A stretch of DNA of 34,472 nt, taken from positions 1 to 34,472 of IMG/VR virus record IMGVR_UViG_2878528002_000001; one strand, written 5' to 3'. The position numbers and the translations under genes were made by a program. This DNA comes from a virus. Taxonomy: Duplodnaviria > Heunggongvirae > Uroviricota > Caudoviricetes. Below the pieces are notes generated by a model that ran no database searches, was not told the origin of the DNA, and was given only the letters and a program-made list of their open reading frames with translations. This document shows, in pieces, positions 10,301 through 34,472 of the stretch (position 1 is its first letter; each line of letters begins with the position of its first letter).

Positions 10301-12199
10301 ACCCCCTATATTGCCAGAATCTGTAGTAATATCTCCTTTAAATGCGGCAGTGCCAGTTGAATCTATATAAAAAGATGGCGTGCTAATAATACCATTAGAT
10401 AAATCTATAAAAGTACCTGCTTTAGAAAAATTCTTATCTGCAACATAATTCAATGATTTTATTGCATCTGTCGCTAATTCTAAAGATGTAATAGCATGTG
10501 ATTTAATATTTCCTTTTTCAATAATTACAGATTTTCCGTTAGAATCCTTGATTATAAATTGATTTGTAATTGCCTGAATCATTCCGTCCGTAAGGCTTAA
10601 TTCAGTTGAACCTGAAGACGTATTAAATACCTTCCATATAAAGCCATATAAATTTTGAGTAGATTCAGAAAAGAAATTAGAAATAGTACTGCTGACAATT
10701 TGCCCATTTTCGTCTTTATAATCTATCGTATCTGTACGCGAAATTTTATTAGAAATTTCGCCATTAATTTTATCTACAATAGATTCTACTGTTGCAATAG
10801 TAGTAATAGAAGTATCAGTAGAAACAACATCTCCATCTGCCTGTCTCCACGGTGAAGGATTTAATCCTTTTTCTAATTGAAAATTTCTAATTTGAACGTC
10901 CATATTTGTACCGTATAAGCATACAGCCAAATAATTAGAAACCTCATCAAAATCAGTTGGGATAGTAAAAGGCAAATATCTGCGTGAAAAATAAAACTGA
11001 CTAATTCCATCATTTACGCTATCACCATCATTAATCCATGATATATCAGAAGATGACACAATTTTTCCAGAAGTATTTTTATAGAAAATTTTCATTCCAA
11101 AAAGAGTACTTTGATTAATTGTTCCGCGAATAGCAAGAGAGTAGACATAATGTTGTTTCCTTTTGAATTGAATGCCAGAAATGACAGAATAAAAACCACT
11201 TTCGGGATTAGTTGCATTGGAAGTAACAATTCTTTGTGAATCTGTTTCTGCATCTAATATATTTTTTGAAACATTATTTTTAGATTCAATAGTCCAATTA
11301 CATAAATCAGAAGTATATTGTTTCACACTTGCTGTATTAGTTAATAGATTTACACCGCCAACTTCAATATCATCTACATCATGCAATCGTAATACAGTTG
11401 TAGTGTCATAATATTTATCATCATTACTCAAACATTTAAATACTATAGAAGTAATTGAATTATTAAACAAAGCACAATCTTTTGCAATTAAAAGAGAATG
11501 AGTCGTTATAACACTTCGAGACTTTAAAGATAATTTTGCACCAGAAACAGATCCACCATCTATAATATTAAGTGTTGAATCTGTGACCATATAATCAGCA
11601 TAAACAGAAAGAGTCTTATTGCTTACAACAAGCTTTCCAATAGAATCAGAAATCTTTAAACCGTATTCTCCATCAACAACATCTTTCCATGTTATGCCAT
11701 TATCAAGGCTATATTGCCATTTATTAAAAGATAATCCCCCCTGAAAGATTGGTGTTAGTCTAATAATATTTGGTGAAAAATTTTCGCCGCCGTCAGAAGA
11801 TTTAAATACTAATCCATTAGAATAAATATCTACAGCTTTTGCCGGAATTCCTTCTTTCGCGCAGCTCCAAGTGACGCTTTTATTTACTGTACTTCCTTCC
11901 ATTGTAATAGGAATAATAATAGTTCCGTTATCCGCGGTAATAGTTGTATTGCTATTTACCGCGAATTTTACAGAATTGGCTGTTTTTGTAGTGGTAAGAA
12001 AACTTGGTGCTTGAATTGTTCCGATTGAAAAATTCGTCTTCTGAGCTGTTCCTTGATATACTACAATGTCACAAGTATACGTTTGTGCGCCAGAAGATAC
12101 TCTGTTTGAATCTGTAGATATATGTATGGAATCATTTGATACAATTACAGAAAACGGCTCGCTTAAATCAGAAATAGTTATACTTCCATAAGCGATCAA
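7370..12199 (-). CDS. Tail fibre / host-specificity protein with collagen-like and carbohydrate-binding-like segments
   Basis: 1609 aa with a TTG start behind AGGAGG. Contains a GXY collagen run, Ala/Ser/Thr coiled-coil repeats, and two GG.NL...(QL/KI)EKG...W modules typical of siphovirus fibres. Confidence 0.85.
8540..8990 (-). repeat. Collagen-like GXY run flanked by duplicated Trp-rich fibre motifs
   Basis: [46 protein letters not shown] lies between [27 protein letters not shown] and [27 protein letters not shown]. Coordinates approximate. Confidence 0.85.
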
Positions 12200-18837: not shown

Positions 18838-21800
18838 TTATGTTCTCCTGAGATTCTTACGCATCTCATTTTGAGTATATTCATTCGATTTCTTCAAAAT
18901 CGTTTTAAGGTCTGGAAGTGTATCACGTACCAGATCTCCCTGAATAGTAATAGGATTGTTATTCGTATAGTTATACACTACATTTTTATCTCCATCACTC
19001 TTGATTTCCGGCATCTTAATTGAAGAAATCATATCTCTGTTCTGATATTGTTCCGCCATATGCACCAAGGTTTCAGTGATATCATTCGGAATAATCATAT
19101 CGGATGCACCAAGTTTGGTCAGCCATCCTTTTCTCGTTACCACAATTTCACGACCATTTTCATTTGTCAGACCAATACTGTTGTGTCCAACATGGTCAGT
19201 ACCTTTTGCGTACTTCTTAATATTGCCCGCGCTCAGATTGGACGCACTGATTCCTAACTGATCAGGAGTAATATTAAACTGCTTTAAGACCTCTGCCAGA
19301 GTATTCATAGCGTCGGCAGCAGAAGCACCAGAGTTATTGATGGCATCATTTATTGCTTTAGACATCTTATCCAGATTGCCACTAAGTTCATTTGACCATT
19401 TTTCGAAATCTTCTTTGAGCTGGTCTTCAAGGTCATCGAGTCCGTCTACCTGCAAATCATAGACGTGATCGCGCACGGTATCGTCAAGGTCATCCTGCGC
19501 GTCCTTTAACTGCGCTTCAAGTTTAGCTTTCTGCGCACGAGATTCTGCATCAGTTACCCCGTCCAATGCATCTATCTGCTGTTGCAGAAGATTGATCTCT
19601 TTTGTCTTACTTTTTAGTTGCTTATCATAATCGTAATATTCCTTTTTCTTTTTCAATGCCTCTTTCCGCGCGTCAATTACCTTAAACAACGCGTCCTGTT
19701 CCTTCTGTGATTGAGTTTTCACGATGGACAGAATCTGCTGTTTATAGGAATTTGCATTCTTGAGGGCATTTTGAATATTGGAATCGTTTTCGGACATCAG
19801 CTCATCATATTTTTGTTCTCCGAAAAGCTTATTATTATAGTCATCTATAATCTGTTGACGCTTCTTAGCATAATTCTGCAAGGTGTCCAGACTGTCATTC
19901 ATGCTCTGCGCGTTTAGAGTAAGAGAGAGTGCGCCCATATCCGTAAGCTGACCAGTATCATAGTCATACATCATTTCTTCCGTTAAAAGGTCATTGATGT
20001 TGTCAAGCTTGGAGATAAACTTATCTGCTTTCTCAATCGCGCGGTCAAACATTTCTTCATACTTAGTGGTAAGCTGTTTCTGTTTGAGGTTTTCAATATC
20101 GGTATCGAATTCCTTTACCGCACTTTCAGCTTCGGCAATTTTAGTGGACATTTCAAGCCATTCGTCAGAACCTTCCTTTATAACTCCACTATCCATTGAA
20201 TTCTTGAGCTGTTCTTGCATTTTAGTAAGTTTTTCAGTTGCAATAGCACGCTGATTTGTCTGTTCTGTAATTTGCGTATCATAGTCAGAAGATTTTGTAT
20301 AGTTGCCGTGTGCTTCGGAAAGATCACGTAACTTTTCTTCTTTCTCAGCAAGTGCTTTCTGATAATCTAAGCGTTTATCATAGTAGTCAGAGATGTTCTC
20401 GAACTTGGTTTGCTCTGCCTCAATTGCTGCTTGTGCGAGTTCCGCTTGAGACTCAGCTGCATTCGCAGCTGCTTCGGCTTCGGCATTTGTTGCTATGTCA
20501 ACCTGTGTGGTTAGTTGCTCAAGGTTTGCCTGTGCATCACGTACTGCATTTGCCGTGTTGGTCAAAGATTTATTATATGCGTCAAGTTGCTTCTTGAGAT
20601 ATTTGCTCTTGATTCCTTTAGTGCTAACAGTTTTGCCCGCATTCAGCGCATTAATCTGTGAGCGATTAAGCTTGTTCTTATACTTTTTAGCAAGAGAAGA
20701 TCCCTTTTTCTTCGCATTAGCTTGATTATTCTTTGCACTCTGTAATTTACTTGCTGCCGCATTTTTCTGTGCAATAGTATCTTGTGTGTTCTTTGTAGCT
20801 TGTGCATAAGCATCTTGATTTGCCTTGTTCTGTTCCTTGGTATTCTGCAATTCCATATCCGTCAGATAATTCTGATAACCTAATGTGTCACCATTAGCAA
20901 GATATTTGGATGACTGTGAATACTGTTTCTGATATTCTGCATAAGTAGCATTTGCACTGTTATATGCAGACCTCGCGGAATTGACAGAACTTCTTGCGAT
21001 GTTAACAGCATTACTTGCGCTCTTAGTTGCAGACTGCGCATGGCTTAATACACTCTTAGAAGAATTGTTCTTCTTTAGCGCGGCATTGTATTTCTGAACA
21101 AGAGTTTTCTTCTTGCCTTTTAGTCCTTTCGTACTGAGTGCCTTGCCAGATGCGATTCTCTTTTTCTCGGAAGAAGTGAGAGTAACAGACTTGTTCTTTT
21201 TAAGTTTCTTCGTTGCACTATTAAGTGCTTTTGTATCTTTATTGGATTGAGATTTTGCACGAGATTCCGTTTTCTGCGCATTACTCAGAGATCTATTAGC
21301 AGAAGATAATCTGCTATTTGCAGAATCAAGATTTGTCTTTGCTGAATTACGTGCGTTTGCAGAGGAATTGACACTAGATTTTATCTCATTGTTCAAATAT
21401 GCTTGCGCTGATCCGCCAAGATTTGCGGTCTTTAATCGTGCTTGAATTGCTGTAAGTCCATTAAAACCATTTTTTAGCTTCTCGATTTTCTTTTCTGCTG
21501 CTTCCGTCGGCATGTTCGCCCACTGCTCGAAAAGCTCAAGCTGCTGATTTTTCAGGTCTTGGACAGCCTGTGTGCATTTTACATATTCATCATAGTATTT
21601 TGCATACTCCTGAATCTTCTCATACTGAGATTTTGTGCCACTCTTCTTACTGGAAGTAGATGTGTTATATTCGGTAATGGCATATTTACCCTCACGAACA
21701 TCTTTCTTAACTTTCGCACTAAGACCAATGGAATTCGCTTTCTTGAGGTATGCATTTGCACCCTTGCTATTGACGGTAATTTCATTGCTTATTGCGGAAA

Positions 21801-24800
21801 TTTGTTTCTTTAACTGAGATGTCTTGAATGCAGAAGACACATAATCATTAATTTTGTCCGCAATCTCTTTGGTTTTGTTAGCAAAATAGGTGAGTTTTCG
21901 TGCCACATAATCAAAGGCAGATGTAGACTTCTTTGTGGACTTAGTGTTTGCTTTGGTTGCGTTTGTATTGGCTTTAGTAGCACTGGTATTATCTCCAGAA
22001 GTTTTTCCAGAAGATTTTGTGTTTCCATATTTCGGACTTGCTAGACCACCTTGAAATTTCAAAGTTGCCGCACCAACGCCAGGAGAATTTGCATGTGCAG
22101 GAGCAATATCGGACAATGATCCATGCGCATAAGCACGAGCAGTTCCATTTGCTTTTCCGTGTGCTAATAAATCCGCAGTTTGCTGTGCATTTAAAACAAT
22201 GTCACCTTTTTTTAATGACTGTGTATGCATTCCAGGTGGAAGCATAAGCCATCTGTCACCACGAATAATAGATTCCTGACCAATTTCATTAACAAGAGCA
22301 GTTTCAGAACGTTGTAACCCGACTTTGCCATTGGCATAAGCAGAACCGTAATTGGTAACATTATAAACTGTGCCAGAAGCATGAGCAGGAGATGATGACG
22401 GAGCAGACATAGTTCCAGATGCTTTTGGTTTTGCAACTGTTCCAAGTGTATAATTAATTACACCCGTAGCAGTCGCGGATTTTGGCGTGGCAACAGTTCC
22501 TAAATCATAATTAATTACACCAGTAGAAACTGTACCGTCAGCCTTTTCCACGTTTCCCTTTTTATAATCGATCGTACCAGTAGATTTTGTGCCGTCCGCT
22601 TTTTCAACTTCACCTTTTTTATAGTTAATGGTTCCGCTAGAAGTAGTGCCATTCGCGTTTTCTACTTTTCCTGCGGTAATATTTCCCTTAACATTAACGG
22701 TTCCAGACGGAGTTCCCGTAACGGAAGTAACATTACCTTTTACATCGACCGTACCTGATGGTTCTCCACTAATAGTCGTTGCGTTAGCATTGACATCAAC
22801 GGTTCCAGATGGAGTTCCGGTAACAGTAGTTACATTCGCATTCACATCTACTGGCTGAGACGGAGTTCCCGTAAGTTGCACAACATTACCCGTCACTGCA
22901 ACTGGCGTTAATCCTGTTCCTGCGGTAAGAGTAGTTACATTCCCAGTAACATCAACACTAGGTTTTGTTCCTTCGGCTGCATTTTGTACCGCACTCTGAG
23001 TTTCAGATTCTACTTGTGAAGTATCTACTTGTGGTGTAACTTTTGCTTCCGTTCCTTCTACAGCAGATTTTGTTTCTGCTTCCACACCATCTGTATTCGC
23101 TTCAACAGGAACCTCAATCTTCTCGCCAGTAATAGCATTAATCAATGCAACAAACTGATCGGAATTCATGGCAACAGTCATATCAATCTGTTCCCCGCTC
23201 ATTTCCTGAATTTCATCACGAACTTGATCTACTTGAGATGCATCACATCCAACAGTAGCCATTAACTCTTGATCGGAAAGTGTAAGTAATTCTTGAAAAG
23301 AATTTCCATTTTCAACCGCAGTTTGAATCTGAACTTGAACTTTTTGTGCTTCTAATGAAGAAATTTCCGTGTCTAAAGTATTAACCGCATCTTCACCATC
23401 AACAGCTACGTCTACATTTACTTTCGCATCTTGTAATTCTTTGATTTTAGAATCAATCTGATCAAGAGACATAGTTGTTTTATCATAGTCAAAATCAATT
23501 CCTGATAAAGTAGAAGAAGTTGATGAGGATTTTTCTTTAAGCTGTTCTTGTGCAGTTTTTCCATCTCCGGTAACGTTTAAATTATCATCAACGGTAATTC
23601 CTGCGGCTGCGGCTTTCTCTTTTGCCATGTTTCTATAAGAATCCGCAAGAGCTTTATTATTTGCATTTTCAGCTGCCTGAACCTGCTCCTGGATATTTTT
23701 AATTTCATCCGCGGCAGTTTTCATTTTCTTCTGCTGGGCTTCTGATCCAAGATTATGCTCGGCATAATAATCCATGCTTTCTTGCAAACCGTCAATCTGT
23801 TGCTTATACTTCGCAACCTCGTCCTCGGCGGCTTTTATCGCAGTGGTATTATATATCGGGTCTTTACCATCTTTTTGCGCCTGGGCATTTTCTTCATTCA
23901 TCTGATCCAGACGTGCTTTAGCCTCAGACCAGTTCTTAGTTGCTTCGGTTGCCTTTAAAATACCATCCTGCATATCGGAGATAACAGTAGTAGTAGCACC
24001 GTAATCTTCGGCACGTCCAAACAATGCCTCTACAACAGGTGTTCCTGTTCCGAGTTTCTGGGCGACTTCTCCGAGATCATGAGTGTTAAGTTCCCATGAC
24101 TGAGTTTCTTCGTTGAAACTTGCCATTGCCTGTCCAGCGGCATCAGTTTTGGTACTAAGGTCTTCGAAGAAATGAACAAGACCGGATTCATCAGATGTGA
24201 GGTATCTTGCGGCTTTCGCGTAGTTTTCCGCAAAGTTTACAGGATCAGTTGCGCCGGAAGGCGATATCATTTTTGCGAAAGATTTGAAATCATCTGTTCC
24301 GATTTCACCAGCGTCCCATGCTTTTTTTGCAGTATCTAAGCCGGAAACCATTGACAGATATTTGTCGCCAGAATTTTCGGTCTGTGTTGCGCGTTGCCAT
24401 TCCGCATAGTCGGAGAAAAGCTGTTTCTGCTGTTGATACTGGGCGTAGTATTGAGATTGCGCCTGTTGTGTGGCATTCAAATCTTCCTGGGCTTGCTTCT
24501 GCTTTTCTAAAGCTTCAACATACTCATCGGATGTTTCTCCGTATTTAGCTTTTAGAATTTCTGCTTGTTTTGCTTGTTTATCAAGTTCATCCGTTTGTTG
24601 TGAGATAGATTCCGCGAAATCTTGTTCTTTGATATCTTTCTGTATATCAAGAAGATTTTCAAGCTGAGAATTATTTAATTTAACGCCTTTAGACGTGTTT
24701 GTAAATAAACCATCTAAATCAAAATCTTTTAATTCATCAGTAGAATTGATTACATCTTGAACACTACTTTTAACAGCATTAATAGAATCTTTTGATAATC

Positions 24801-26640
24801 CCGTATCAGACATGGAATCAGAGATAGCAGAAGAGATAGTTGAATATTGAGAAGTAATACTTTCTACTGATTTCTGTAAATTTGCAACTGATAATTCAGC
24901 TTGTCTCTTTTGATTCTCAATTTGAGAAATTGCATCGTTATAGGAAAGTTTATGATCAGTGTCTGCATTTGCAATTTCACCAAGAGCCTCTAAATCCTCT
25001 GTATTAAATCTACGAATAGCATCTTCTCTAGTTGTATCACCATATCGAGAAGTAATACTTGTCATCGCATCTTTAACTTTAATCCATTCATCATAAATTC
25101 CAGAAGCTTCTTGTAACTGCTTTTTATTGAATGATTCAGATTTTGCATCTGCTTCGTCTAAAGCTGCGTTTGCAGTAGTATACCAATCTTTTGCAGTATC
25201 TTCTGCGTGATTTTCATTGAAACTAAATAATGAATCAATGGAATCTCGAATATCAGATTTGTCTAATTCATTGACTACATTACTTGCCCATTTCTTGATA
25301 TTATCCGCAGCATTATCTTTATCAGTAAACCCATTGGATTCAAGGTCTTCCATGGTCATAGCATTAATCATAGAAGTAACCTTGCTATCTAAACCATCAT
25401 TATCCAAAATTAAATCCTGATATTTTTTATTTGCCTGTAAAAAACTAGGAATATATTGTTTTAATTCATTTGCAGAGTTATCAACATCACTTTGAAGCTC
25501 GCCAACTCCATCCATTAATGTTGTAAGCGTCTTTGCGGAATCACTACCGGATTTTAATTTTCCATTACTAGAATTCAAATCTTGAATTAAATCTTGAATA
25601 TCCGCCTGTGATAATCCTAAAGTTTGATATGCCTCGCCAAAATCAGAAGCATTAAATCCTGTTTCCGCATTTGTGGACATATTCATGTATTTCTGTAAAT
25701 CAATATAACCAGTCGGCTTATTTCCACCTTTTGTAGAAAATGCTTTGTTATAATCTTTAATAAACTGTTCCAATCCGTCAAGCTGTTTCTGAGAGCCAGC
25801 ATCTTGCCATGGAAGAGTTTTACTGCGCATAACTTCTTCATAAAATTTGCCAGTAACATCTTTTGCTTCTTTGACATTTTTGTTATATGCGTCAAATTTG
25901 GCATTCTTTAATGCAGTTTGCAAATCAGAGACACTTTTTGCCGCGCCAATAATCGGTTTTCCTAAAGAATCGTAGCCAGTAACAAGCTCTGGGAATTGCT
26001 GCGCAATCTGAGAGGAGAGTTGTTGATATTCTTCATAATCTGCACTTGTAAGACTAAGATTCTGTCCGAGATTATTAACGCCTTTAGAAAGTTCTTCATA
26101 TCTTTCAGCATTGGTCTTAACCCATGAAGTAGATTCACTCATTTGCTGATTGATATTCTGGTAATCGCTCAGAACTTCGGAACCTGCTTTAATGGTGTTT
26201 GATTGTTTGTTTACAACATAATCAATACCAGCGGCAGTTGCTTGAAGTCCGGCACTGATTAAAAAATTAGTTCCGACATCTACTGCCACAGCTTTTGCAG
26301 TTTGACCAAATGAAGATAAGCCACTTTTTAATTTTTCCATAATGGTACTGGTATCAATCATTTGCTCACCAGATTCAGCCTGGGACTTTTTGAATTTTTC
26401 TTCTGCTTTCATAGCAGAAGTAGCACTATCTCCATATTGATTAAAAAATTTGATCGTATCCTTTAATCTATCCCCGTATGCTTTTTGTGCGTCTGGTGAT
26501 AAATTACTTGCTTTTAATACGTCTTCATACTTGATATTCCTGTTTCCAGACTGATGTTGTTCATCTATATATGAAAAAGCATTTCTAAAACTTCTACTAT
26601 TATTTATTCCTTTTGATAAACCATCTATTGTATTGTATAC
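18838..26640 (-). CDS. Tape measure protein, exon 2 (2600 codons)
   Basis: Long helical Ala/Gln/Lys-rich ORF with AKGT..GLTNENGREIV-type C-terminal motifs. The frame is open 76 codons upstream of the annotated Met (26412), back to TAG 26643..26641, and that Met has no RBS. Confidence 0.88.
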   Translation of the reverse strand, partial: VYNTIDGLSKGINNSRSFRNAFSYIDEQHQSGNRNIKYEDVLKASNLSPDAQKAYGDRLKDTIKFFNQYGDSATSAMKAEEKFKKSQAESGEQMIDTSTIMEKLKSGLSSFGQTAKAVAVDVGTNFLISAGLQATAAGIDYVVNKQSNTIKAGSEVLSDYQNINQQMSESTSWVKTNAERYEELSKGVNNLGQNLSLTSADYEEYQQLSSQIAQQFPELVTGYDSLGKPIIGAAKSVSDLQTALKNAKFDAYNKNVKEAKDVTGKFYEEVMRSKTLPWQDAGSQKQLDGLEQFIKDYNKAFSTKGGNKPTGYIDLQKYMNMSTNAETGFNASDFGEAYQTLGLSQADIQDLIQDLNSSNGKLKSGSDSAKTLTTLMDGVGELQSDVDNSANELKQYIPSFLQANKKYQDLILDNDGLDSKVTSMINAMTMEDLESNGFTDKDNAADNIKKWASNVVNELDKSDIRDSIDSLFSFNENHAEDTAKDWYTTANAALDEADAKSESFNKKQLQEASGIYDEWIKVKDAMTSITSRYGDTTREDAIRRFNTEDLEALGEIANADTDHKLSYNDAISQIENQKRQAELSVANLQKSVESITSQYSTISSAISDSMSDTGLSKDSINAVKSSVQDVINSTDELKDFDLDGLFTNTSKGVKLNNSQLENLLDIQKDIKEQDFAESISQQTDELDKQAKQAEILKAKYGETSDEYVEALEKQKQAQEDLNATQQAQSQYYAQYQQQKQLFSDYAEWQRATQTENSGDKYLSMVSGLDTAKKAWDAGEIGTDDFKSFAKMISPSGATDPVNFAENYAKAARYLTSDESGLVHFFEDLSTKTDAAGQAMASFNEETQSWELNTHDLGEVAQKLGTGTPVVEALFGRAEDYGATTTVISDMQDGILKATEATKNWSEAKARLDQMNEENAQAQKDGKDPIYNTTAIKAAEDEVAKYKQQIDGLQESMDYYAEHNLGSEAQQKKMKTAADEIKNIQEQVQAAENANNKALADSYRNMAKEKAAAAGITVDDNLNVTGDGKTAQEQLKEKSSSTSSTLSGIDFDYDKTTMSLDQIDSKIKELQDAKVNVDVAVDGEDAVNTLDTEISSLEAQKVQVQIQTAVENGNSFQELLTLSDQELMATVGCDASQVDQVRDEIQEMSGEQIDMTVAMNSDQFVALINAITGEKIEVPVEANTDGVEAETKSAVEGTEAKVTPQVDTSQVESETQSAVQNAAEGTKPSVDVTGNVTTLTAGTGLTPVAVTGNVVQLTGTPSQPVDVNANVTTVTGTPSGTVDVNANATTISGEPSGTVDVKGNVTSVTGTPSGTVNVKGNITAGKVENANGTTSSGTINYKKGEVEKADGTKSTGTIDYKKGNVEKADGTVSTGVINYDLGTVATPKSATATGVINYTLGTVAKPKASGTMSAPSSSPAHASGTVYNVTNYGSAYANGKVGLQRSETALVNEIGQESIIRGDRWLMLPPGMHTQSLKKGDIVLNAQQTADLLAHGKANGTARAYAHGSLSDIAPAHANSPGVGAATLKFQGGLASPKYGNTKSSGKTSGDNTSATKANTNATKANTKSTKKSTSAFDYVARKLTYFANKTKEIADKINDYVSSAFKTSQLKKQISAISNEITVNSKGANAYLKKANSIGLSAKVKKDVREGKYAITEYNTSTSSKKSGTKSQYEKIQEYAKYYDEYVKCTQAVQDLKNQQLELFEQWANMPTEAAEKKIEKLKNGFNGLTAIQARLKTANLGGSAQAYLNNEIKSSVNSSANARNSAKTNLDSANSRLSSANRSLSNAQKTESRAKSQSNKDTKALNSATKKLKKNKSVTLTSSEKKRIASGKALSTKGLKGKKKTLVQKYNAALKKNNSSKSVLSHAQSATKSASNAVNIARSSVNSARSAYNSANATYAEYQKQYSQSSKYLANGDTLGYQNYLTDMELQNTKEQNKANQDAYAQATKNTQDTIAQKNAAASKLQSAKNNQANAKKKGSSLAKKYKNKLNRSQINALNAGKTVSTKGIKSKYLKKQLDAYNKSLTNTANAVRDAQANLEQLTTQVDIATNAEAEAAANAAESQAELAQAAIEAEQTKFENISDYYDKRLDYQKALAEKEEKLRDLSEAHGNYTKSSDYDTQITEQTNQRAIATEKLTKMQEQLKNSMDSGVIKEGSDEWLEMSTKIAEAESAVKEFDTDIENLKQKQLTTKYEEMFDRAIEKADKFISKLDNINDLLTEEMMYDYDTGQLTDMGALSLTLNAQSMNDSLDTLQNYAKKRQQIIDDYNNKLFGEQKYDELMSENDSNIQNALKNANSYKQQILSIVKTQSQKEQDALFKVIDARKEALKKKKEYYDYDKQLKSKTKEINLLQQQIDALDGVTDAESRAQKAKLEAQLKDAQDDLDDTVRDHVYDLQVDGLDDLEDQLKEDFEKWSNELSGNLDKMSKAINDAINNSGASAADAMNTLAEVLKQFNITPDQLGISASNLSAGNIKKYAKGTDHVGHNSIGLTNENGREIVVTRKGWLTKLGASDMIIPNDITETLVHMAEQYQNRDMISSIKMPEIKSDGDKNVVYNYTNNNPITIQGDLVRDTLPDLKTILKKSNEYTQNEMRKNLRRT
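22420..22960 (-). repeat. Tandem peptide repeats inside tape measure exon 2
   Basis: About six ~17-aa units (VDVNANVTTVTGTPSGT) followed by four ~19-aa units (GTINYKKGEVEKADGTKST). Coordinates approximate. Confidence 0.85.
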
Positions 26641-26730
26641 CTACGAAAATAAATATATCTATCATATAATTTTGGATTTATATATAGAATATTGTGTGAT
26701 ATAATGAAAATTAAAAAGGAGTAAAAATAA

Positions 26731-27222
26731 ATGGGAACAGAAGAACGTATTAAACAACATTTAATAATTTGTCCGAGATGTGGTGATATATTTGGATCTC
26801 GGATTCCATACGATCCAAATAAAAAAGAAGTTTGTGTAAGATGTCAATATCCGGATTCGCTAGACACAAAAATGACCGTCGCAGATTTAGATAATTTTTT
26901 GAATAATAGTAAATACGAAGAATGGCATGAAAGACAAAGGGAATTGCGTAAAAAATACACCATAAACAGTAATGTATTTGATCAAGATTTATACAACCAA
27001 ATCATAAAAGAAGAGTATGAGAGATACCATCTCAATGATGATGTTCCAACCAGTACGCCAAAACCAGTAACTAAACATATACCTAAATGCCCTACCTGCG
27101 GCTCAACCAATATTGAGAAAATCTCTGCAACTAAAAAATTAGCTGGTAGTATGCTGTTTGGTTTATTCAGCAAAGATGCTAAGAGTACTTTCCATTGTAA
27201 AAACTGCAACTACAAATGGTAA
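26731..27222 (+). CDS. Double Zn-ribbon protein (intron cargo, antisense)
   Basis: 163 aa with CPRC/CVRC and CPTCGS/CKNC pairs. AAGGAG RBS and an extended -10 TGATATAAT at 26697..26705. Confidence 0.85.
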   Translation: MGTEERIKQHLIICPRCGDIFGSRIPYDPNKKEVCVRCQYPDSLDTKMTVADLDNFLNNSKYEEWHERQRELRKKYTINSNVFDQDLYNQIIKEEYERYHLNDDVPTSTPKPVTKHIPKCPTCGSTNIEKISATKKLAGSMLFGLFSKDAKSTFHCKNCNYKW

Positions 27223-27416
27223 TCATCCAATGTTATATTACCGCTGGCTTTATGCTTAACATATGTAATGCATTTTTCGATTTCCTGATCCGTTGGAACC
27301 GGAACATGTTTTAGTTTCATATAATGTATAAATGATTCTGCCATTAAATAATAATTGCACAACTGTTTTATAAAAAACAAATTTGTCAAGATAAGTATGA
27401 TTATAATAAATAACAT
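27210..27416 (-). CDS. Small membrane protein (intron cargo)
   Basis: 68 aa with a hydrophobic N-terminal helix and AGAAAGG RBS. Converges on the Zn-ribbon gene. Confidence 0.55.
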   Translation of the reverse strand: MLFIIIILILTNLFFIKQLCNYYLMAESFIHYMKLKHVPVPTDQEIEKCITYVKHKASGNITLDDYHL

Positions 27417-27447
27417 ATCGTCGCCTTTCTAAAGATGAGGTTGAATT

Positions 27448-27855
27448 ATGAAATTAAATTTAGACTGCATAAAAGATGTCATGGTGTTTCTGGAAGACAA
27501 TCTTACAGATGACAATGCTTTTGTACCAAATCAAATATATGAATCACTTGAAAAATATTCTTATGAAGATGTCGAATATACTGTCAAGGCTTTATTGTCT
27601 GAAAAATGGATTGCCGGAATAGTACAAGAAATAGGTGGCTTGTATATTGTAAAATCTATTACACCTGATGGACATAATTACTTAAATGCAATAAAAGACG
27701 AATCTATCTATAAAATCATAAAGAAACATTTTGCAACCGCTGGGGCATCTACATTATCATTTCTTACAGTAATTATAAAAGATGTTCTTGTGAAATATGC
27801 AGACAAGCACGATGCGGTTTCTGTGGCACTTCATTATTTTAAGAATCTATTTTAA
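27448..27855 (+). CDS. DUF2513/YjcQ-like winged-helix protein (intron cargo)
   Basis: 135 aa. MKLNLDCIKDVMVFLE start and ITPDGHNYLNAI motif. GAGGT RBS. Confidence 0.78.
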   Translation: MKLNLDCIKDVMVFLEDNLTDDNAFVPNQIYESLEKYSYEDVEYTVKALLSEKWIAGIVQEIGGLYIVKSITPDGHNYLNAIKDESIYKIIKKHFATAGASTLSFLTVIIKDVLVKYADKHDAVSVALHYFKNLF

Positions 27856-28076
27856 TATTTTATCAGAAAACATTAGATAAGGAGTTCAAAGATTCTTTAT
27901 TAAATCCGGTAGAAGAAGAGGAATATGAAGAACCAAAGATTAGATGTCCGAAATGCGGTTCCATTAATATAACAACTGGGCAGTGTGGTTATTCTTTTTT
28001 TACTGGATTTTTAGGATCTAATAAGACTATGAATAGGTGTGGAAATTGCGGGTATAAATGGACACCAAATAAATAG
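27856..28076 (+). pseudogene. 5'-truncated Zn-ribbon gene fragment (not in the ORF track)
   Basis: Frame ..EEPKIRCPKCGSINITTGQCGYSFFTGFLGSNKTMNRCGNCGYKWTPNK* has no start codon between the in-frame stop at 27840 and the Cys motifs. Same architecture as the C-terminus of 26731..27222. Confidence 0.75.
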
Positions 28077-28091
28077 ATATAGAAAAGCAAA

Positions 28092-28115
28092 ATGAGAGGC
28101 AAAATAGCCTCTCAT
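28092..28115. terminator. Perfect 9-bp hairpin, probable terminator
   Basis: ATGAGAGGC-AAAATA-GCCTCTCAT, downstream of the plus-strand cargo genes. The T-rich tail is on the minus side. Confidence 0.6.
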
Positions 28116-28346
28116 ATAATGCTTGTTTGGCGGGATCATGGAGATAACTCCGAATCACCCGTTATTAGAGAATTAAAAAAGACTACACTCGAAGCTCCGC
28201 CTCTATCCAGTCTTAGTAAAATGACAAGGAGTATCCACCACTTATACGCCATCTGCCTACATTTAATTCCCTATAACAATATCTCAGCAAGTGAGCCTAT
28301 ATTAAATGTATAATACTAGGAAAGCAGTAACTCTCTTTTTTTATAC

Positions 28347-28602
28347 AAAAAAAGAACAGCCCATGAAGCTGTTCCAAAAAACTCAACCGTTTTTTGCCAG
28401 TATAAGCAAAATATTCGAATTTATATTACTCTATAATAATATCCAGACAAATATCTCGTCAATATACTGGAAATCGTTGTGAGCCTATAAAAATGCGTCC
28501 ATTTTCAAGCTCAAAAAAGAATACTATTGATATTGAGAAATATCAAACACTACGCAGTGACAGGACACAAACCGTGTATACGACGGGATAATATTTCTAC
28601 TT
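28347..28602 (-). ncRNA. Candidate ~255-nt structured RNA downstream of the PemK-like gene
   Basis: Own promoter (28637..28609) and terminator (28374..28347). Contains 8-bp helices TTGATATT/AATATCAA and CCAGTATA/TATACTGG. No ORF listed in the track. Confidence 0.62.
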
Positions 28603-29406
28603 ATGTTTAATATATCCTTTTCCCTTATTATTGTCAACATGTTTCTTTTTATTTTTCGGTTCTGATTTTAGTCTTTGTTGTTCTAATTTGTTTATTCTGA
28701 ATTTTAAATCATGAACCTGTTTCTCAAGTTCTTTATTTCTTTTTTTATATTCATCATTATTCTTTATAAGAGATTGATGTCTTTGATGAATAGTAGGATA
28801 CATGATTTGAAATACCTGCATTTGTATATCAAACAAAACAGTATCTGAAATTGTTGTAATCTCCTTATCTATCCTTGCACGTGAAATAAATTTTGTGTCA
28901 TTGATAAGCAAAACACAATCTTTAGGAAATCCATCACTCATTAAACCTTGTCTGTATTTTTTATTTCCATTTTTATTATTTGTGGGATGATAACTCTGTG
29001 GAAAAATATCATTACCACTTCGAATAGGAACTACTAAAAATTTATTGTCTTTAACGCCAATGCATAATCCATGGTGATAATATCCCAACTCTCCGGCAAA
29101 TGTGTTTCCATAATCAATATAGTATGTATGTCCTATTTTTGGAATAATTTGTTTTTTATTATCATCGTAAGATACTGTCGTATGACATTTTCTCATCCAA
29201 TTCATATCACTGAATAGTATAGATGCTGCGTCATACGCATTTTGTCTTTTTAACCCCTGAATGTAATTATGCATATACTGAACAGCTGCAAGCATAATTA
29301 CAGAATATTTGATTGATTTATTTGTTTTATTCTTTTCGATATGCTCTGTATATCTCTTTATGTTTGTGACATCACTCCAAATCATATTATCATGATTCAT
29401 TTGCAT
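28597..29406 (-). CDS. PemK/MazF-like endoribonuclease-fold toxin with C-terminal coiled coil (intron cargo)
   Basis: 269 aa. GHTYYIDYGNTFAGELGYYHHGLCI..FLVVPIRS and LINDTKFISRARI resemble the PemK/MazF pattern. Promoter TTGACG-17-CATAAT at 29471..29443. Confidence 0.68.
   Translation of the reverse strand: MQMNHDNMIWSDVTNIKRYTEHIEKNKTNKSIKYSVIMLAAVQYMHNYIQGLKRQNAYDAASILFSDMNWMRKCHTTVSYDDNKKQIIPKIGHTYYIDYGNTFAGELGYYHHGLCIGVKDNKFLVVPIRSGNDIFPQSYHPTNNKNGNKKYRQGLMSDGFPKDCVLLINDTKFISRARIDKEITTISDTVLFDIQMQVFQIMYPTIHQRHQSLIKNNDEYKKRNKELEKQVHDLKFRINKLEQQRLKSEPKNKKKHVDNNKGKGYIKHK
28609..28637 (-). promoter_or_regulatory. sigmaA promoter embedded in the last codons of the PemK-like gene
   Basis: TTGACA (28637..28632)-17 nt-TATATT (28614..28609). 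Confidence 0.72.
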
Positions 29407-29570
29407 ATTTTAGTTCACCATCCAATATTGTGTATTAATATTATTATGTGACAAAATATGACAAACGTCAATTCAGAACATATGTATGCAAACACATATT
29501 TACTAAAATTCATTGACAAAACATTAATTTCATCGTATGTTGAGTATAATATATAGAAGGAGATATTAGT

Positions 29571-29801
29571 ATGAACAATAAAGAAATTAGCAGTAATATA
29601 TCACTTGTCTATCGTGATATAGAAAATACATATTCTGATTCAAAATCTATTTTGGCTGATATTATGAAACATGCAAATGACAATTTTGAAGAAATTGAAA
29701 ATATATATCGTCTTGTTGCAATGATATCTTTTTACAAAAATAATTACAGTCAGAGAGGCGGCGAAATATTATTCGAAGAATTCTCCAAAAATTTCTGTTA
29801 G
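29571..29801 (+). CDS. Hypothetical protein, possibly extended to 29917 by a -1 frameshift
   Basis: AGAAGGAG RBS and promoter TTGACA-17-TATGTT (29513..29541). The -1 frame continues FLLENQIPVRAIPEYY...LGLFYNC*. Confidence 0.65.
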   Translation: MNNKEISSNISLVYRDIENTYSDSKSILADIMKHANDNFEEIENIYRLVAMISFYKNNYSQRGGEILFEEFSKNFC

Positions 29802-30029
29802 AAAACCAAATTCCTGTTAGAGCAATACCCGAATATTATGCCAATGAATACCAAATAGATTATGTCTCACGACTCAATACTGCATATAAAAACCTAGGAT
29901 TATTCTATAATTGCTAATTATATAATTTAGAAGTGGAAGATACTTGTTCTTCCAAAAAAATATTGTGTTGACTCGCGAACATTACTATAAGCAATGACGA
30001 GTAATATAATGCAGAAAATATGTTCTACT

Positions 30030-31330
30030 GTGAATTACTCATGTCTAAAGACACGAGCTTCCTGCTTCTACGTCCTCGTAACCTACTAACTCCACAGGCG
30101 TAAATTTCGGTAATTCCTACCGTATTTTATTTCTATCATGATACTTCTAACATTCTCATTCCTTCGTTAAGAATATTAATTGCAGCATTAATATCACGAT
30201 CATGAACAGTTCCACATTGAGGGCATATCCATTCTCTTACTGATAAGTCTTTTGTATCTTTATTAACAAAGCCACATACATTACAGGTCTGACTTGACGG
30301 TACATATCTACCAATTTTGATATATGTACGTCCATTCCATTCTGCCTTATATGTAATCTGTCTAGTTAATTCATACCATCCACAATCTGAAATAGCTTTT
30401 GCAAGATTATGATTCTTAACCATATTTGATACTGCCAAATCTTCACTAATTACCACTTGGTTTTCGCTGATAAGTTTATGTGATATTTTATGCAAATTGT
30501 CAATTCTGGTGTTATGAATTTTCTCATGAATTCGAGCTATTTTAATTCGTTGCTTATTCCAGTTTTTACTACCTTTTGCTTTATGAAACAGTTTTCTTTG
30601 TTCTTTTGCAAGTTTGTATTCGTATTTCTTAGTAGCACGAATATTGTCAAATTTTTCTCCATCAGAAGTGATAAGTAAATCCTTAATACCTAAGTCAATA
30701 CCAACTGAATTATTATTTTCTTTCATTGGAATATGTTCTGTTTCTACAAGAATTGAAACAAAATATTTTCCAGATGAAATCTGAGATATTGTTGCAGATT
30801 TTATCTTGCCTGTAAATTCTCTATGGATTTTTGCTTTAACCCATTTAAGTTTTGGAAGTTTGATCTTATTGCTTTCAAAAGAAACTTCTATATTCCCATT
30901 TGTAAAATTAGTAGAATATAATTTTTTCTTATTACGTTTACTCTTGAATTTTGGATATCCTGTATGCTCTTTAAAGAACCTCTGGTATGCGGAATCCATA
31001 TTATAAATTGCATTTGTAAGGGCAAACTTGTCAACTTCTTTCAGCCATTCATATTCCTTTTTTAGAACTTGATTAACATAATTGTTACAATCTATTTTGC
31101 TCATAGATTCTTTTTTAGTTTCATATAATTCTTTTCTATACGCTAACATTTGATTATAAACAAATCTACAACATCCAAAAGTTTTCTGAATTTGTTCTTC
31201 TTGTTGCTTATTTGGATAAATCCTATATTTATAAGCCTTTAACATTTACTCATCACCTCCTCACTTATATATTCTCTTTTAATTTGCTAACTCACGACTA
31301 AAGTCACGAGAATGCACAAATTAATGTTTT
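30030..31330 (-). mobile_element. Non-autonomous IS200/IS605-family (IS1341-type, tnpB only) element nested in the intron
   Basis: Related subterminal hairpins CTCGTGACTTTAGTCGTGAG (31310..31291) and CTCGTGTCTTTAGACATGAG (30057..30038). Right end reads ...TAATTCAC. No tnpA. Left end approximate. Confidence 0.85.
30136..31245 (-). CDS. tnpB: RNA-guided endonuclease TnpB
   Basis: 369 aa. KAYKYRIYPN HTH start, RuvC residues GIDLG / SEDL / DRDINAA intact, CNVC..CPQC Zn finger, GGAGG RBS. Confidence 0.96.
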   Translation of the reverse strand: MLKAYKYRIYPNKQQEEQIQKTFGCCRFVYNQMLAYRKELYETKKESMSKIDCNNYVNQVLKKEYEWLKEVDKFALTNAIYNMDSAYQRFFKEHTGYPKFKSKRNKKKLYSTNFTNGNIEVSFESNKIKLPKLKWVKAKIHREFTGKIKSATISQISSGKYFVSILVETEHIPMKENNNSVGIDLGIKDLLITSDGEKFDNIRATKKYEYKLAKEQRKLFHKAKGSKNWNKQRIKIARIHEKIHNTRIDNLHKISHKLISENQVVISEDLAVSNMVKNHNLAKAISDCGWYELTRQITYKAEWNGRTYIKIGRYVPSSQTCNVCGFVNKDTKDLSVREWICPQCGTVHDRDINAAINILNEGMRMLEVS

Positions 31331-31546
31331 TCAAAACGACTATTCTGATGGTATAATTTGCCATGTAGATAGTGAGCGAACGCACCACTCACTTGTGCGT
31401 ATCTACACAGCAACCTATTAACCACACCAAACAAATAAAGGATAGGTGTATTACCATCAGAAGTCTATATGATTCTGGGCGTTCTGCCCTTTATATTTCC
31501 ACTTTTGACCAGAGTGGTGGCTTAACCGCTAGGAAGGAGGTGGAAC

Positions 31547-31738
31547 ATGAAAAAAGCAGAACAGCAATTTGAGCTTGCAAAGTTAGCAATTAATCGAATT
31601 ACAATCGTAGTTGGAGTACTCGCTGTTGTTTGGATGATTTTTGCGCATAATCCGGCAACATTTAAAGCGGCTTTCAATACGAATGAATTCACAGCTGAGA
31701 TTTCTTGTGAGTTTGCAAGCGATTCACCGGAGGAGTAG
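31547..31738 (+). CDS. Small single-TM protein with a long structured leader (intron cargo, antisense)
   Basis: 63 aa, strong AGGAAGGAGGT RBS, TM ITIVVGVLAVVWMIFA. Extended -10 TGGTATAAT at 31349..31357 and terminator at 31800..31831. Confidence 0.7.
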   Translation: MKKAEQQFELAKLAINRITIVVGVLAVVWMIFAHNPATFKAAFNTNEFTAEISCEFASDSPEE

Positions 31739-31799
31739 AATTACAAATCCGGTAGCATGGGGTGAAACCCATGTGATGTTTTTGTTTCACTTCTTTATA

Positions 31800-31831
31800 G
31801 ATGCCGTGGCTCATTTGTCACGGTGTCTTTT
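31800..31831 (+). terminator. Rho-independent terminator just before the intron core
   Basis: GATGCCGTGGC-loop-GTCACGGTGTC-TTTT. Confidence 0.65.
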
Positions 31832-32401
31832 CAATTGCAACCATTTTATTCTGCTCATATTTTAGTTCTCCGCAGTGGAGATATCCGAAGTTGCGTCGGA
31901 TTGGTATTCACTCTATATTCGCACATCGCAACCATACCAATTTGCAATGCTCCAAAAAATGCTGACAGAAGGGTAGTATATAGAAACTATCCCTGAATGA
32001 TTCGGGCATCTGTCTTCCCTATCGCTAGAGTGCATCTTCGTGATTCCTGATGAAACCACGCTTTCGTTACGCTCGTTGAGGTCGGTATCCTTTCTTATTA
32101 GAACGAAACCCTACCTGCGGATTACCTCGTGTTTTGAATTATTCCCTTACCTCATGCTTTCACATTCGCCACCTATTCCTATTAAGAATAGGTTTGAGAT
32201 CAAAACCATGTGACGCAGACTTTTGAACTGCGAAGGTTCCCCGTCCTACTGTTCATAGTAGGAGAGTAATGCATTACCATTGCTCCATATTAGAAAGTCA
32301 CTATAGAAGTCCTTGTCTTTTGACTCGTACACGTTACCGTTAAACTTCTAAGCGGCATAAGTCATTTGAAAAATGCATGGGGCGAATTCCCATGTACTCT
32401 T

Positions 32402-34472
32402 ACCGCTGCCTGTTTTGCCCTGGAAGATTCCAAGACCGATCGCTGCTGTATTTAACATACCAATCGAACTTGTCAAATTTGTAAACAAATTTAATAAGTT
32501 TGTGCCACCATCTACTAATCCTTTAAACATATCAGAAGAAAACGTAGTCGTAGCCATTTTCTGAAATGCAGATTCAAACTGTTGTTGTTTAGCTTCAATA
32601 GATTCTAGCCATCTATCCTGTTCCTGTTGCGCAGAACCATCAGAATTTAATGTGTCTTGATATGCTTTTTGAACTTGTCCAGATTGGAATCCTTGAATTA
32701 ATGCAGCAATTTGGTTGCCTCTATTCTTACCTGCTAATTTTTCGAGTAATTCCGCTCTATTTTTATCAGTCAAATCATCATAGATTTCACTGATTTCTTC
32801 CATAAGAGTATATGTATCTTTATATGTCTGCTTTGTATCATCAGTAAACAGACTAATGCCGCCAGGTGTTTTTGCCGTTTTTGTTAAGTCAGCAATTGCA
32901 CCTGAAAGTTCTTCTGTGTCATTGGTGTATGAATCGGTTTCTTCGTCATAACCTCTTACCCTCATGGCGAGGATCTTTAGTGCATTTCCAGCTTCTGGTG
33001 CACTCTGCGTGATTTCTGACATTCCTGTAAGCATAGCTAGAGAATGACCAAGGTCGTTTCCTGCGGTTGCTAAAGAAGATGCCGAATTGGATAGTCCCTC
33101 ACCTAAATCTGCACTTGAAGTTGCGAAATTATTACCCAGAATATTTAATTGATCAATTATAGATTCTGCATCTGATGCTTGAATATTAAACGCCTTCATA
33201 GCAGTAACCATATCGGAAACTGCCGTGTTGTCACTAACTTCACCAACATTTGCATACATTGAACTTAATTTGGAAAGTTGCTCAGAATCATCTAATGAGT
33301 ATCCAAGTTTTGACCATTCAGATGTTTGGGAAATATAAGAAGATATGCTTCTTCCTAATTCAGGCGCATTTTTAGAAGCAGTATCAAGATATTTAGAATA
33401 ACGAGACTGTGATTCATCTGTTACTTTATACAGGTTCGTCATTGCTGAATCAACGTCTTTGACCGAACTAATCACTTTAGACGGAACTTCCATTATTACA
33501 TTTTGAATCGCACCATAAATTCCTGCGAACTGTCCGATTTGCTTAAAAGCTCGCTTGAATTCATCTATTCCAGATTTTCCAGTTAATCCTTCTGCGGAAA
33601 TCCTCGACTGAATATTCTTAAACGCAGTATCAAGATTTGCCTTTTCTTCCACAGTGGAAACTTGTTGGTACTGTTTTTCAAGTTCTTTTAATGTCGCCCC
33701 ATATTTTTTTACAGCTTTACTGTTTTCTTCGTAATATGTAGCAACTTTATTTGCCGACTGAATAGCAACACCTGGAGCAAGTGTCTTTGACTGCGTATCA
33801 CGAATTTCAGAAAGAGTATTTTTAAACGTGTCGCCAGCTTTAGTCATTTTTTCAAAACTTTCTGCAAGCTGAGTTCCGTTTAAGGAAGCGTTTCCACTAA
33901 AATGATTCTGTAATTTGGACAATTCTTCGTTGTATGTCTGAAGCGCGGCTTTTGCTTTTGTTATATTCTCAGAATCCTGCCCATTATAAGCTGATAACTG
34001 TTTTGCCATCCTTGAAGATCTGGCATCATAAGTTCCAGTTTCAATATTATATTTAATCTGATTTCTATTAGATTTTGTGGCAGAATTTTGTGCTTTATCA
34101 GTAACTGAAGCTCTAGCCTTATCGACCACAGAAGCGGTTTGCATTCTTCTTTGGTTAAGTATTCTGGATTGTTCTTTTGGAGTATACACATCTGTATACT
34201 GTTTCATTTCACTCTTTAGACGTTTACTTTCCGCCTGTAATTGCTGTCTCTCTCTCTTTAGAGAATCAACAGTAGCAGAATTTCCGGATGCTTGATTTTT
34301 TATAATATCTGCTTTATTTTTATTAAGCTGATCAACATTTTTTAATTGTTGTTTGAGTAAATCATTTGCATTTTTCTTGCGTTGAGTAATTAGAGCCTTT
34401 TCTTGCCTTTCCTGTTCATCATATAGTTTTTTAGCATCACTCATCGCATCCTTGTTTCTGATACTTTTTTTG
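32402..34472 (-). CDS. Tape measure protein, exon 1 (TP901-type core; 5' end outside the window)
   Basis: VKDVDSAMTNLYKVTD, WSKLGYS, LGNNFATSSADLGEGL and LAGKNRGNQIAAL are TMP core motifs. The frame is open to the window edge. The unspliced ORF would stop 17 codons into the intron (32348). Confidence 0.92.

Follow-up and report, generated by a model that had tools for sequence, protein, structure and literature searches.

How might a phage make one long tape-measure protein (TMP) from a gene whose two halves are separated by several kilobases of other genes? The question arises in a 34,472-nucleotide stretch of viral DNA, called the window below (IMG/VR record IMGVR_UViG_2878528002_000001, positions 1 to 34,472), which makes up the initial 34 kb of a provirus record of 174,673 bp, complete by CheckV. 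The minus strand of the window carries tail genes and an endolysin gene, and there the TMP gene is interrupted by an intervening sequence of 5,761 nucleotides (26641..32401, minus strand), which consists of a ribozyme-like core followed by cargo and ends at a predicted omega-G. We judge it very probable that the two TMP halves are rejoined at the RNA level, and the insert is probably a group I-type intron that is spliced in cis to yield a single TMP mRNA. One very large intron is the best reading because the core covaries, the 3′ junction is conserved in frame, the halves are collinear and the protein is conserved ahead of the first possible start codon of exon 2.

By its sequence, the provirus is a large SPbeta-like phage within a clade of gut phages. 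Relatives of its TMP occur in SPbeta-like and other large Firmicutes phages, and the close relatives come from gut assemblies. Protein and pattern searches yielded approximately 40 loci in which this RNA sits at the same codon; numbers from L001 to L083 denote loci of relatives, and G000:C1 denotes coordinates on the full provirus record. Covariation was assessed in 23 distinct copies, which represent about four clades, so counts of alignment cells overcount evolutionary events. The 3′ junction was assessed in 26 complete copies that show exon 2, some of them redundant, with nine distinct exon-2 starts.

The two halves of the tape-measure gene

Exon 1 occupies 32402..34472 of the minus strand and continues to genome position 34768, encoding 789 amino acids (aa) that match PF10145 (E=5.8e-22) and phrog_4211 (E=4e-76). 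Its start codon, at G000:C1:34768 beyond the window, is preceded by a strong ribosome-binding site (RBS). Exon 2 (18838..26640, minus strand) encodes 2,600 aa, and the in-frame joined protein thus comprises 3,389 aa. The TMP sets the length of the tail, and at an estimated 0.15 nm per residue a protein of this size would give a tail of about 500 nm. A preliminary description of this DNA had given a joined TMP of at least 3290 aa; the joining stands, and the full length is greater since exon 1 begins beyond the window. The two exons are collinear on phrog_4211, matching positions 554-936 and then 966-1603, and they are also in order on SPbeta YomI. Furthermore, the reading frame crosses the intron site without a stop in two distant TMPs (L004 and L023).

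If the RNA were a relic or a regulatory element and no rejoining took place, the locus would encode two separate proteins or be a dead gene. Such an arrangement has some appeal, as the unspliced frame of exon 1 forms a closed open reading frame (ORF) that ends at 32348, inside the intron, and exon 2 holds a 2,524-aa ORF beginning at codon 77. However, codon 77 is the first in-frame ATG, GTG or TTG of exon 2, none of codons 77, 94 and 101 is preceded by an RBS, and in L012 no such codon occurs ahead of codon 98. Despite lying before any start codon, residues 1-72 match a profile built from six relatives with 27.8 bits, a value reached by none of 1,000 shuffled sequences (best 9.2), and the outcome is the same with each relative left out in turn. 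Because these residues are homologous though they precede any start, they appear to be under selection as protein and must then be joined to exon 1. Translation of exon 2 from its own start, which the preliminary description had named as grounds for abandoning an intron, is made unlikely by the same observations.

The ribozyme-like core and the predicted 5′ splice site

The first ∼440 nucleotides of the insert can be folded into a group I-type core. Paired region P1 (32351..32407, minus strand, as are all RNA elements below) joins the last six bases of exon 1 (32407-32402) to an internal guide (32356-32351), and the U32402·G32356 wobble marks the 5′ splice site, making U32402 the last base of exon 1. 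This helix with its wobble is invariant in all 23 copies and hence shows no covariation. The core itself (32022..32350) comprises P2, P3, two additional hairpins that precede P4, P4-P5 in which P5 carries a large extension, P6, P7, P8 and the 5′ strand of P9.0. It is followed by a P9 domain (31964..32021) made up of a short stem, P9, and a longer stem-loop; compensatory changes occur in each, and the two may together form a pseudoknot. Every helix named in the preliminary description (P1 closing in U·G, P2, P3, P4-P6, P7 with one C·A pair, and P8) was recovered at the same bases, as were an omega-G at 26641 and two phase-0 junctions. The extent of 26641-32407 given there requires correction, since 32407-32402 is the exon strand of P1 and the intron proper runs from 32401 to 26641.

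Folding of the core is more stable than that of shuffled sequences (z = -3.66; 0 of 100 shuffles as good). Across the 23 copies, standard pairs fill 98.5% of alignment cells, and 13 of 65 pairs have changed on both sides, compared with 0-2 in slid controls; hand correction of one gap adds three more such pairs in P2. The two-sided changes are distributed over P2, P5, P6a, P7, P8 and P9, and P3 shows one-sided changes only. The P3-P7 pseudoknot, P4-P6 and P8 follow in the canonical order by which group I membership was judged. Within P7, the predicted guanosine-binding pair is G32074-C32028, with C32075 bulged, and the strand forming this G-site is invariant together with its partner.

Some features of the core are unusual. 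The pair next to the G-site is G-C where group I introns usually have C-G. Only 3-4 nucleotides connect the 5′ strand of P7 to the 3′ strand of P3 in all copies, leaving no P7.1 or P7.2, which places the core outside the definition of subgroups IA1 and IA2, and we assign it to no subgroup. As judged from the alignment, these oddities (the P3-P4 hairpins, short P4, large P5 extension, missing P7.1/P7.2 and C·A pair in P7) are conserved and are not signs of decay. The non-standard pairs in P4 and P7 would suit the relic or regulatory RNA considered above. In contrast, the catalytic-site columns are invariant where overall core identity between clades is ∼77-80%, and a nine-base, phase-0 junction is kept in nine divergent exon-2 types (see below). 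We therefore consider it unlikely that the halves are left unjoined.

A local hairpin with a GNRA loop (32030..32017) is an alternative fold for the P9.0 strand together with the 3′ strand of P7. It could keep the core from acting before synthesis of the distant 3′ end, although the same bases are explained by the P9 stem as well.

The predicted 3′ splice site and possible transcription through the cargo

The predicted 3′ splice site (26638..26646) consists of the 3′ strand of P9.0, omega-G 26641 and the first codon of exon 2. In 26 of 26 complete copies and in all nine types, the frame reopens in phase at one nine-base motif, TCGYAG|RTA, at distances of 2.4-7.9 kb from the 5′ site. The chance of this motif at a given position is ∼1e-5; the 24 preceding bases cannot be aligned, and the exon-2 protein diverges too. 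The 3′ site, which the preliminary description had ranked as less certain than the 5′ site, is instead the best-supported part of the structure.

In P9.0, bases 32025-32022, which are invariant and lie just after P7, pair with 26646-26643, leaving A32026 opposite A26642, and a C variant in L012 turns a G·U pair into G-C. Inclusion of 32027 in this helix, as previously suggested, is not retained because U32027 pairs with A32076 in P7. Guide bases 32359-32357 can form a three-base-pair P10 with the first codon of exon 2, which is always RTA, and this helix is energetically marginal. GT and AG dinucleotides reminiscent of spliceosomal introns are present at the ends of the insert, but cutting there would shift the frame by two bases and we take them to be a coincidence.

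A further pairing may bring the ends together. Directly after the P9 domain, a T-run and a G-run (31951..31957) can pair with 26670..26676, located 29-35 nucleotides before omega-G and within ∼40 nucleotides of it in the other copies. Two Gs are matched with two Cs in five types, and three or four Gs are matched with three Cs in four types. L082 and L083 were fetched after this correspondence had been predicted, and both fit. The change in the two runs may be one event on the tree, and the pattern is suggestive of a stem that closes the cargo loop.

The size of the insert and its accessory cargo are similar to those of elements that interrupt sporulation genes, which raises the idea that a site-specific recombinase excises the insert from the DNA before late expression. 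A four-base direct repeat does span the two junctions in this copy. However, relatives lack this repeat, the two ends are not linked by any shared repeat, direct or inverted, no recombinase is found among the cargo genes examined, and a covarying RNA fold of 440 nucleotides would be left unexplained. Excision at the DNA level is accordingly very improbable.

Several observations weigh against a group I intron spliced in cis. P1, P3, P4 and most of P7 are invariant, so their support comes from motif and invariance, not covariation, and the sole double change in P7 is a single clade-level event. P4 has only four standard pairs, and the C·A pair of P7 is present in 16 of 23 copies. The proposed long-range stem has little stability (-7.0 kcal/mol here), and 58% of cargo windows pair equally well with its anchor. 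Terminators face the TMP transcript here, and 15 of 21 other copies scanned also have them. An intron-free allele of exactly this clade was not found. An exon-2 query against viral contigs gave no matches, and a DNA search of 401 genomes from the family of the L008 genome gave a single short match.

Covariance models are also silent. Rfam model RF00028 has no match in the window, core, genome or relatives, a result that formally goes against an intron by the terms of the preliminary description. As a control, the same model misses the intron of T4 td and scores T4 nrdB at 35.7 bits and SPO1 at 25.6 bits against a cut-off of 50. It also misses L010, a related TMP intron with textbook motifs, and its gaps have been documented (PMC11878797). 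Since RF00028 misses validated introns, the absence of a match is not a refutation, and introns with cores invisible to Rfam are probably undercounted. Our own model, R1, likewise gives no significant match to T4, SPO1 or other TMP introns, and with no such link to validated introns the assignment to group I rests on anatomy.

The terminator-like hairpins of this copy (28092..28375, at 28375-28353 and 28115-28092) are located inside the cargo on the TMP strand; none occurs in the 7.8 kb of exon 2. This distribution would be expected if the same ribozyme acted in trans, with transcription stopping at the cargo terminator, exon 2 being transcribed from a cargo promoter, and the two RNAs being brought together by the long-range stem, P9.0 and P10. 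In organelles, group I introns that naturally splice in trans have been reported (cited in PMC6545197). However, the bridging pairings of only about seven, four and three base pairs are weak for a bimolecular reaction, no conserved sense promoter is evident before exon 2, promoter-like sites occur at chance level, and six scanned copies have no terminator at the same threshold.

Moreover, the provirus encodes a 949-aa protein (G000:C1:62370-65219) that matches phrog_8308 (E=2e-90), the family of SPbeta YonO, with 20% identity and its catalytic motif aligned. In SPbeta, YonO reads the late genes as a single operon and pauses little (PMC5467207); the SPbeta late operon likewise holds terminator-like hairpins. 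A polymerase of this kind could read through the cargo terminators, and we regard splicing in trans as improbable.

The course of events that we infer for splicing in cis, from read-through and catalysis to the roles of the long-range stem and the cargo, would be as follows. The intron is fixed at one TMP codon in a clade of large SPbeta-like gut phages. During lytic growth the late operon would be transcribed across the whole insert, probably by the YonO-like polymerase of the phage as it passes host-type terminators. The first ∼440 nucleotides would fold as the ribozyme, with the cargo looped out 3′ of the P9 domain, and the long-range stem and P9.0 would carry omega-G, 5.3 kb away, to the G-binding site. 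With the exons aligned on the guide by P1 and P10, two transesterifications would produce an in-frame mRNA for the 3,389-aa protein. At the DNA level, the loop would accommodate genes being gained, lost or exchanged; these have their own promoters and are presumably expressed in the lysogen.

The cargo and its place among known introns

Cargo differs between phages. Nearest to the core in this copy, a 63-aa ORF antisense to the TMP gene (31547..31738, plus strand) has a hydrophobic stretch, a strong RBS and a downstream terminator, and has no family match. Next is a 1.3-kb insertion sequence (IS) of the IS200/IS605 family that carries TnpB only (30030..31329, minus strand; ORF 31245..30136, with PF01385, PF07282 and PF12323). 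The TnpB gene, subterminal hairpins at its ends and insertion after TTGAA without target duplication identify this family. L011 is empty at the exact insertion site, which marks the element as a recent passenger. An IStron, in which a mobile element and an intron are one, was considered and rejected because the splice sites are not the IS ends (the right end is at 30030 and the 3′ site at 26641), L011 lacks the IS, and all copies of the insert occupy one codon. Two further ORFs with TnpB-like N-termini are present elsewhere in the prophage (G000:C1:67366-68421 and 149414-150520).

A 76-aa ORF (29571..29801, plus strand) has a related ORF in L012. The following 269-aa protein (28597..29406, minus strand) has homologues in L011 and L028, and is PemK/MazF-like by language-model features only (ESM Atlas 0.96, with PemK on 11-54% of cluster members); it has no Pfam match, and its predicted structure has a local confidence score (pLDDT) of 36. 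The resemblance serves as a lead. Beyond the terminator-like hairpins, an interval with no intact ORF (28075..27945) matches the 3′ end of zinc-ribbon cargo genes in many relatives and is likely a gene remnant. Two antisense genes complete the cargo on the plus strand, encoding a 135-aa DUF2513 protein (27448..27855; PF10711, E=2.6e-17) and a 163-aa zinc-ribbon protein (26731..27222) with related genes in seven other copies. A promoter-like site of the latter gene (26677-26705) adjoins the 3′ splice site. Relatives carry NYN, DUF3800, AIPR, Bro-N/ANT, transposase and membrane proteins in their inserts. As a rule, cargo at the 5′ side is encoded by the sense strand, whereas the last gene is directed away from the 3′ splice site. 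No homing endonuclease was found among the cargo ORFs of the window or 17 cargo proteins of relatives that were scanned.

The DNA immediately after the insert is also variable. Residues 1 to ∼130 of exon 2 form a hypervariable cassette (26640..26250, minus strand) with one shared short motif near residue 55; the first 100 residues are mostly 17-38% identical between the nine types. The cassette has been swapped between phages that are otherwise 96-100% identical, and the window and L011 share 29% identity over these 100 residues. A role related to the host or to exclusion is possible. Strict pairing of the last antisense cargo gene with the cassette, as in an immunity-like pair, was ruled out because L001 and L015 have the cassette in common but not the gene, and the reverse holds for L002 and L015. 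We tentatively propose that the fixed intron is an exchangeable gene bay, in which the stem closes loops of any length, YonO-type transcription provides read-through of terminators that stop host polymerase, and recombination in the bay also swaps the adjoining ∼130 TMP residues, which would make the intron a hotspot of variation in accessory genes and in the tail protein alike.

Different group I-like RNAs interrupt related TMP genes close to this site, no more than a few codons away and immediately downstream of TMP exon 1, at L003, L005, L006, L008, L009, L010, L017, L021 and L025. Kilobases of cargo follow several of these RNAs, and some share the G-C variant beside the G-site.

Elsewhere in the record, a full pyruvate phosphate dikinase gene (Pfam) is present at its start (1..2634, plus strand), and at its end (G000:C1:172934-174673) is an ORF with an N-terminal motif that we take to be serine-recombinase-like; these are probably a host flank and the prophage integrase, respectively. 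Opposite the dikinase gene, an antisense open frame of 642 codons (607..2535, minus strand) is probably a shadow of codon usage. A tail-fibre-like protein of 1,609 aa, also encoded on the minus strand (7370..12199), has collagen and alanine-zipper segments.

If the insert is spliced, exons as far as 7.9 kb apart are joined by a phage ribozyme, a distance several times the length of described phage introns, and this provides a natural design for a cargo-tolerant self-splicing RNA. It would also offer a route by which accessory genes can sit within an essential late gene without destroying it. The split would explain a common annotation artefact, in which two 'tape-measure genes' with an island between them lead to wrong predicted tail lengths. 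In a literature search that mostly did not extend to subscription papers, no paper came to light that describes a phage intron with exchangeable cargo of several genes, and on TMP introns that carry cargo there was no closer work than the papers cited here.

The preliminary description of an unusually large group I intron in one TMP gene is borne out by covariation, the junction and the collinear halves, but a TMP gene as the host is not novel: TMP-IVS1, 2 and 3 were described in 2008 as IA1/IA2 introns in TMP genes of Bacillus cereus-group prophages (PMC2504315). What is new here is the size and the swappable cargo. The TMP-IVS introns resemble the insert in lying in frame in a prophage TMP gene and in having a U·G 5′ site, P10 and a terminal G. 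They carry at most a homing endonuclease, whereas the 5.8-kb insert holds several unrelated genes on both strands, lacks P7.1/P7.2 and stops translation into the intron only after 17 codons. Surveyed phage group I introns (T4 td, nrdB, SPO1 and Bastillevirinae) have a mean length of 802 ± 342 nucleotides and carry homing endonucleases (PMC11878797). The P4 5′ motif of our core is like that of T4 td, its G-site strand has the motif of td, nrdB and SPO1, and extra sequence between P3 and P4 is common to the SPO1 intron and this core.

IStrons such as CdISt1, BcISt1 and CbISt3/4 also have a ribozyme at the 5′ end, cargo 3′ of P9, a 3′ site far from the core and a TnpB gene inside (PMC4227781, PMC10690162). 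However, they are IA2 introns with P7.1/P7.2, measure ∼1.4-2.6 kb in the listed examples, splice at transposon ends and occupy varied target sites. In the present insert the IS lies in the interior, 3.4 kb away from the 3′ site, as a passenger that can be dispensed with, and the intron is at one fixed codon. The giant ND5-717 group I intron of hexacoral mitochondria, which contains many genes (PMC6545197), is similar in that several independently expressed genes reside in a peripheral loop and the exons are still joined. That intron is organellar, holds core mitochondrial genes in P8 and in its 18-19 kb forms is removed by back-splicing, whereas the phage insert described here carries variable accessory DNA after P9.

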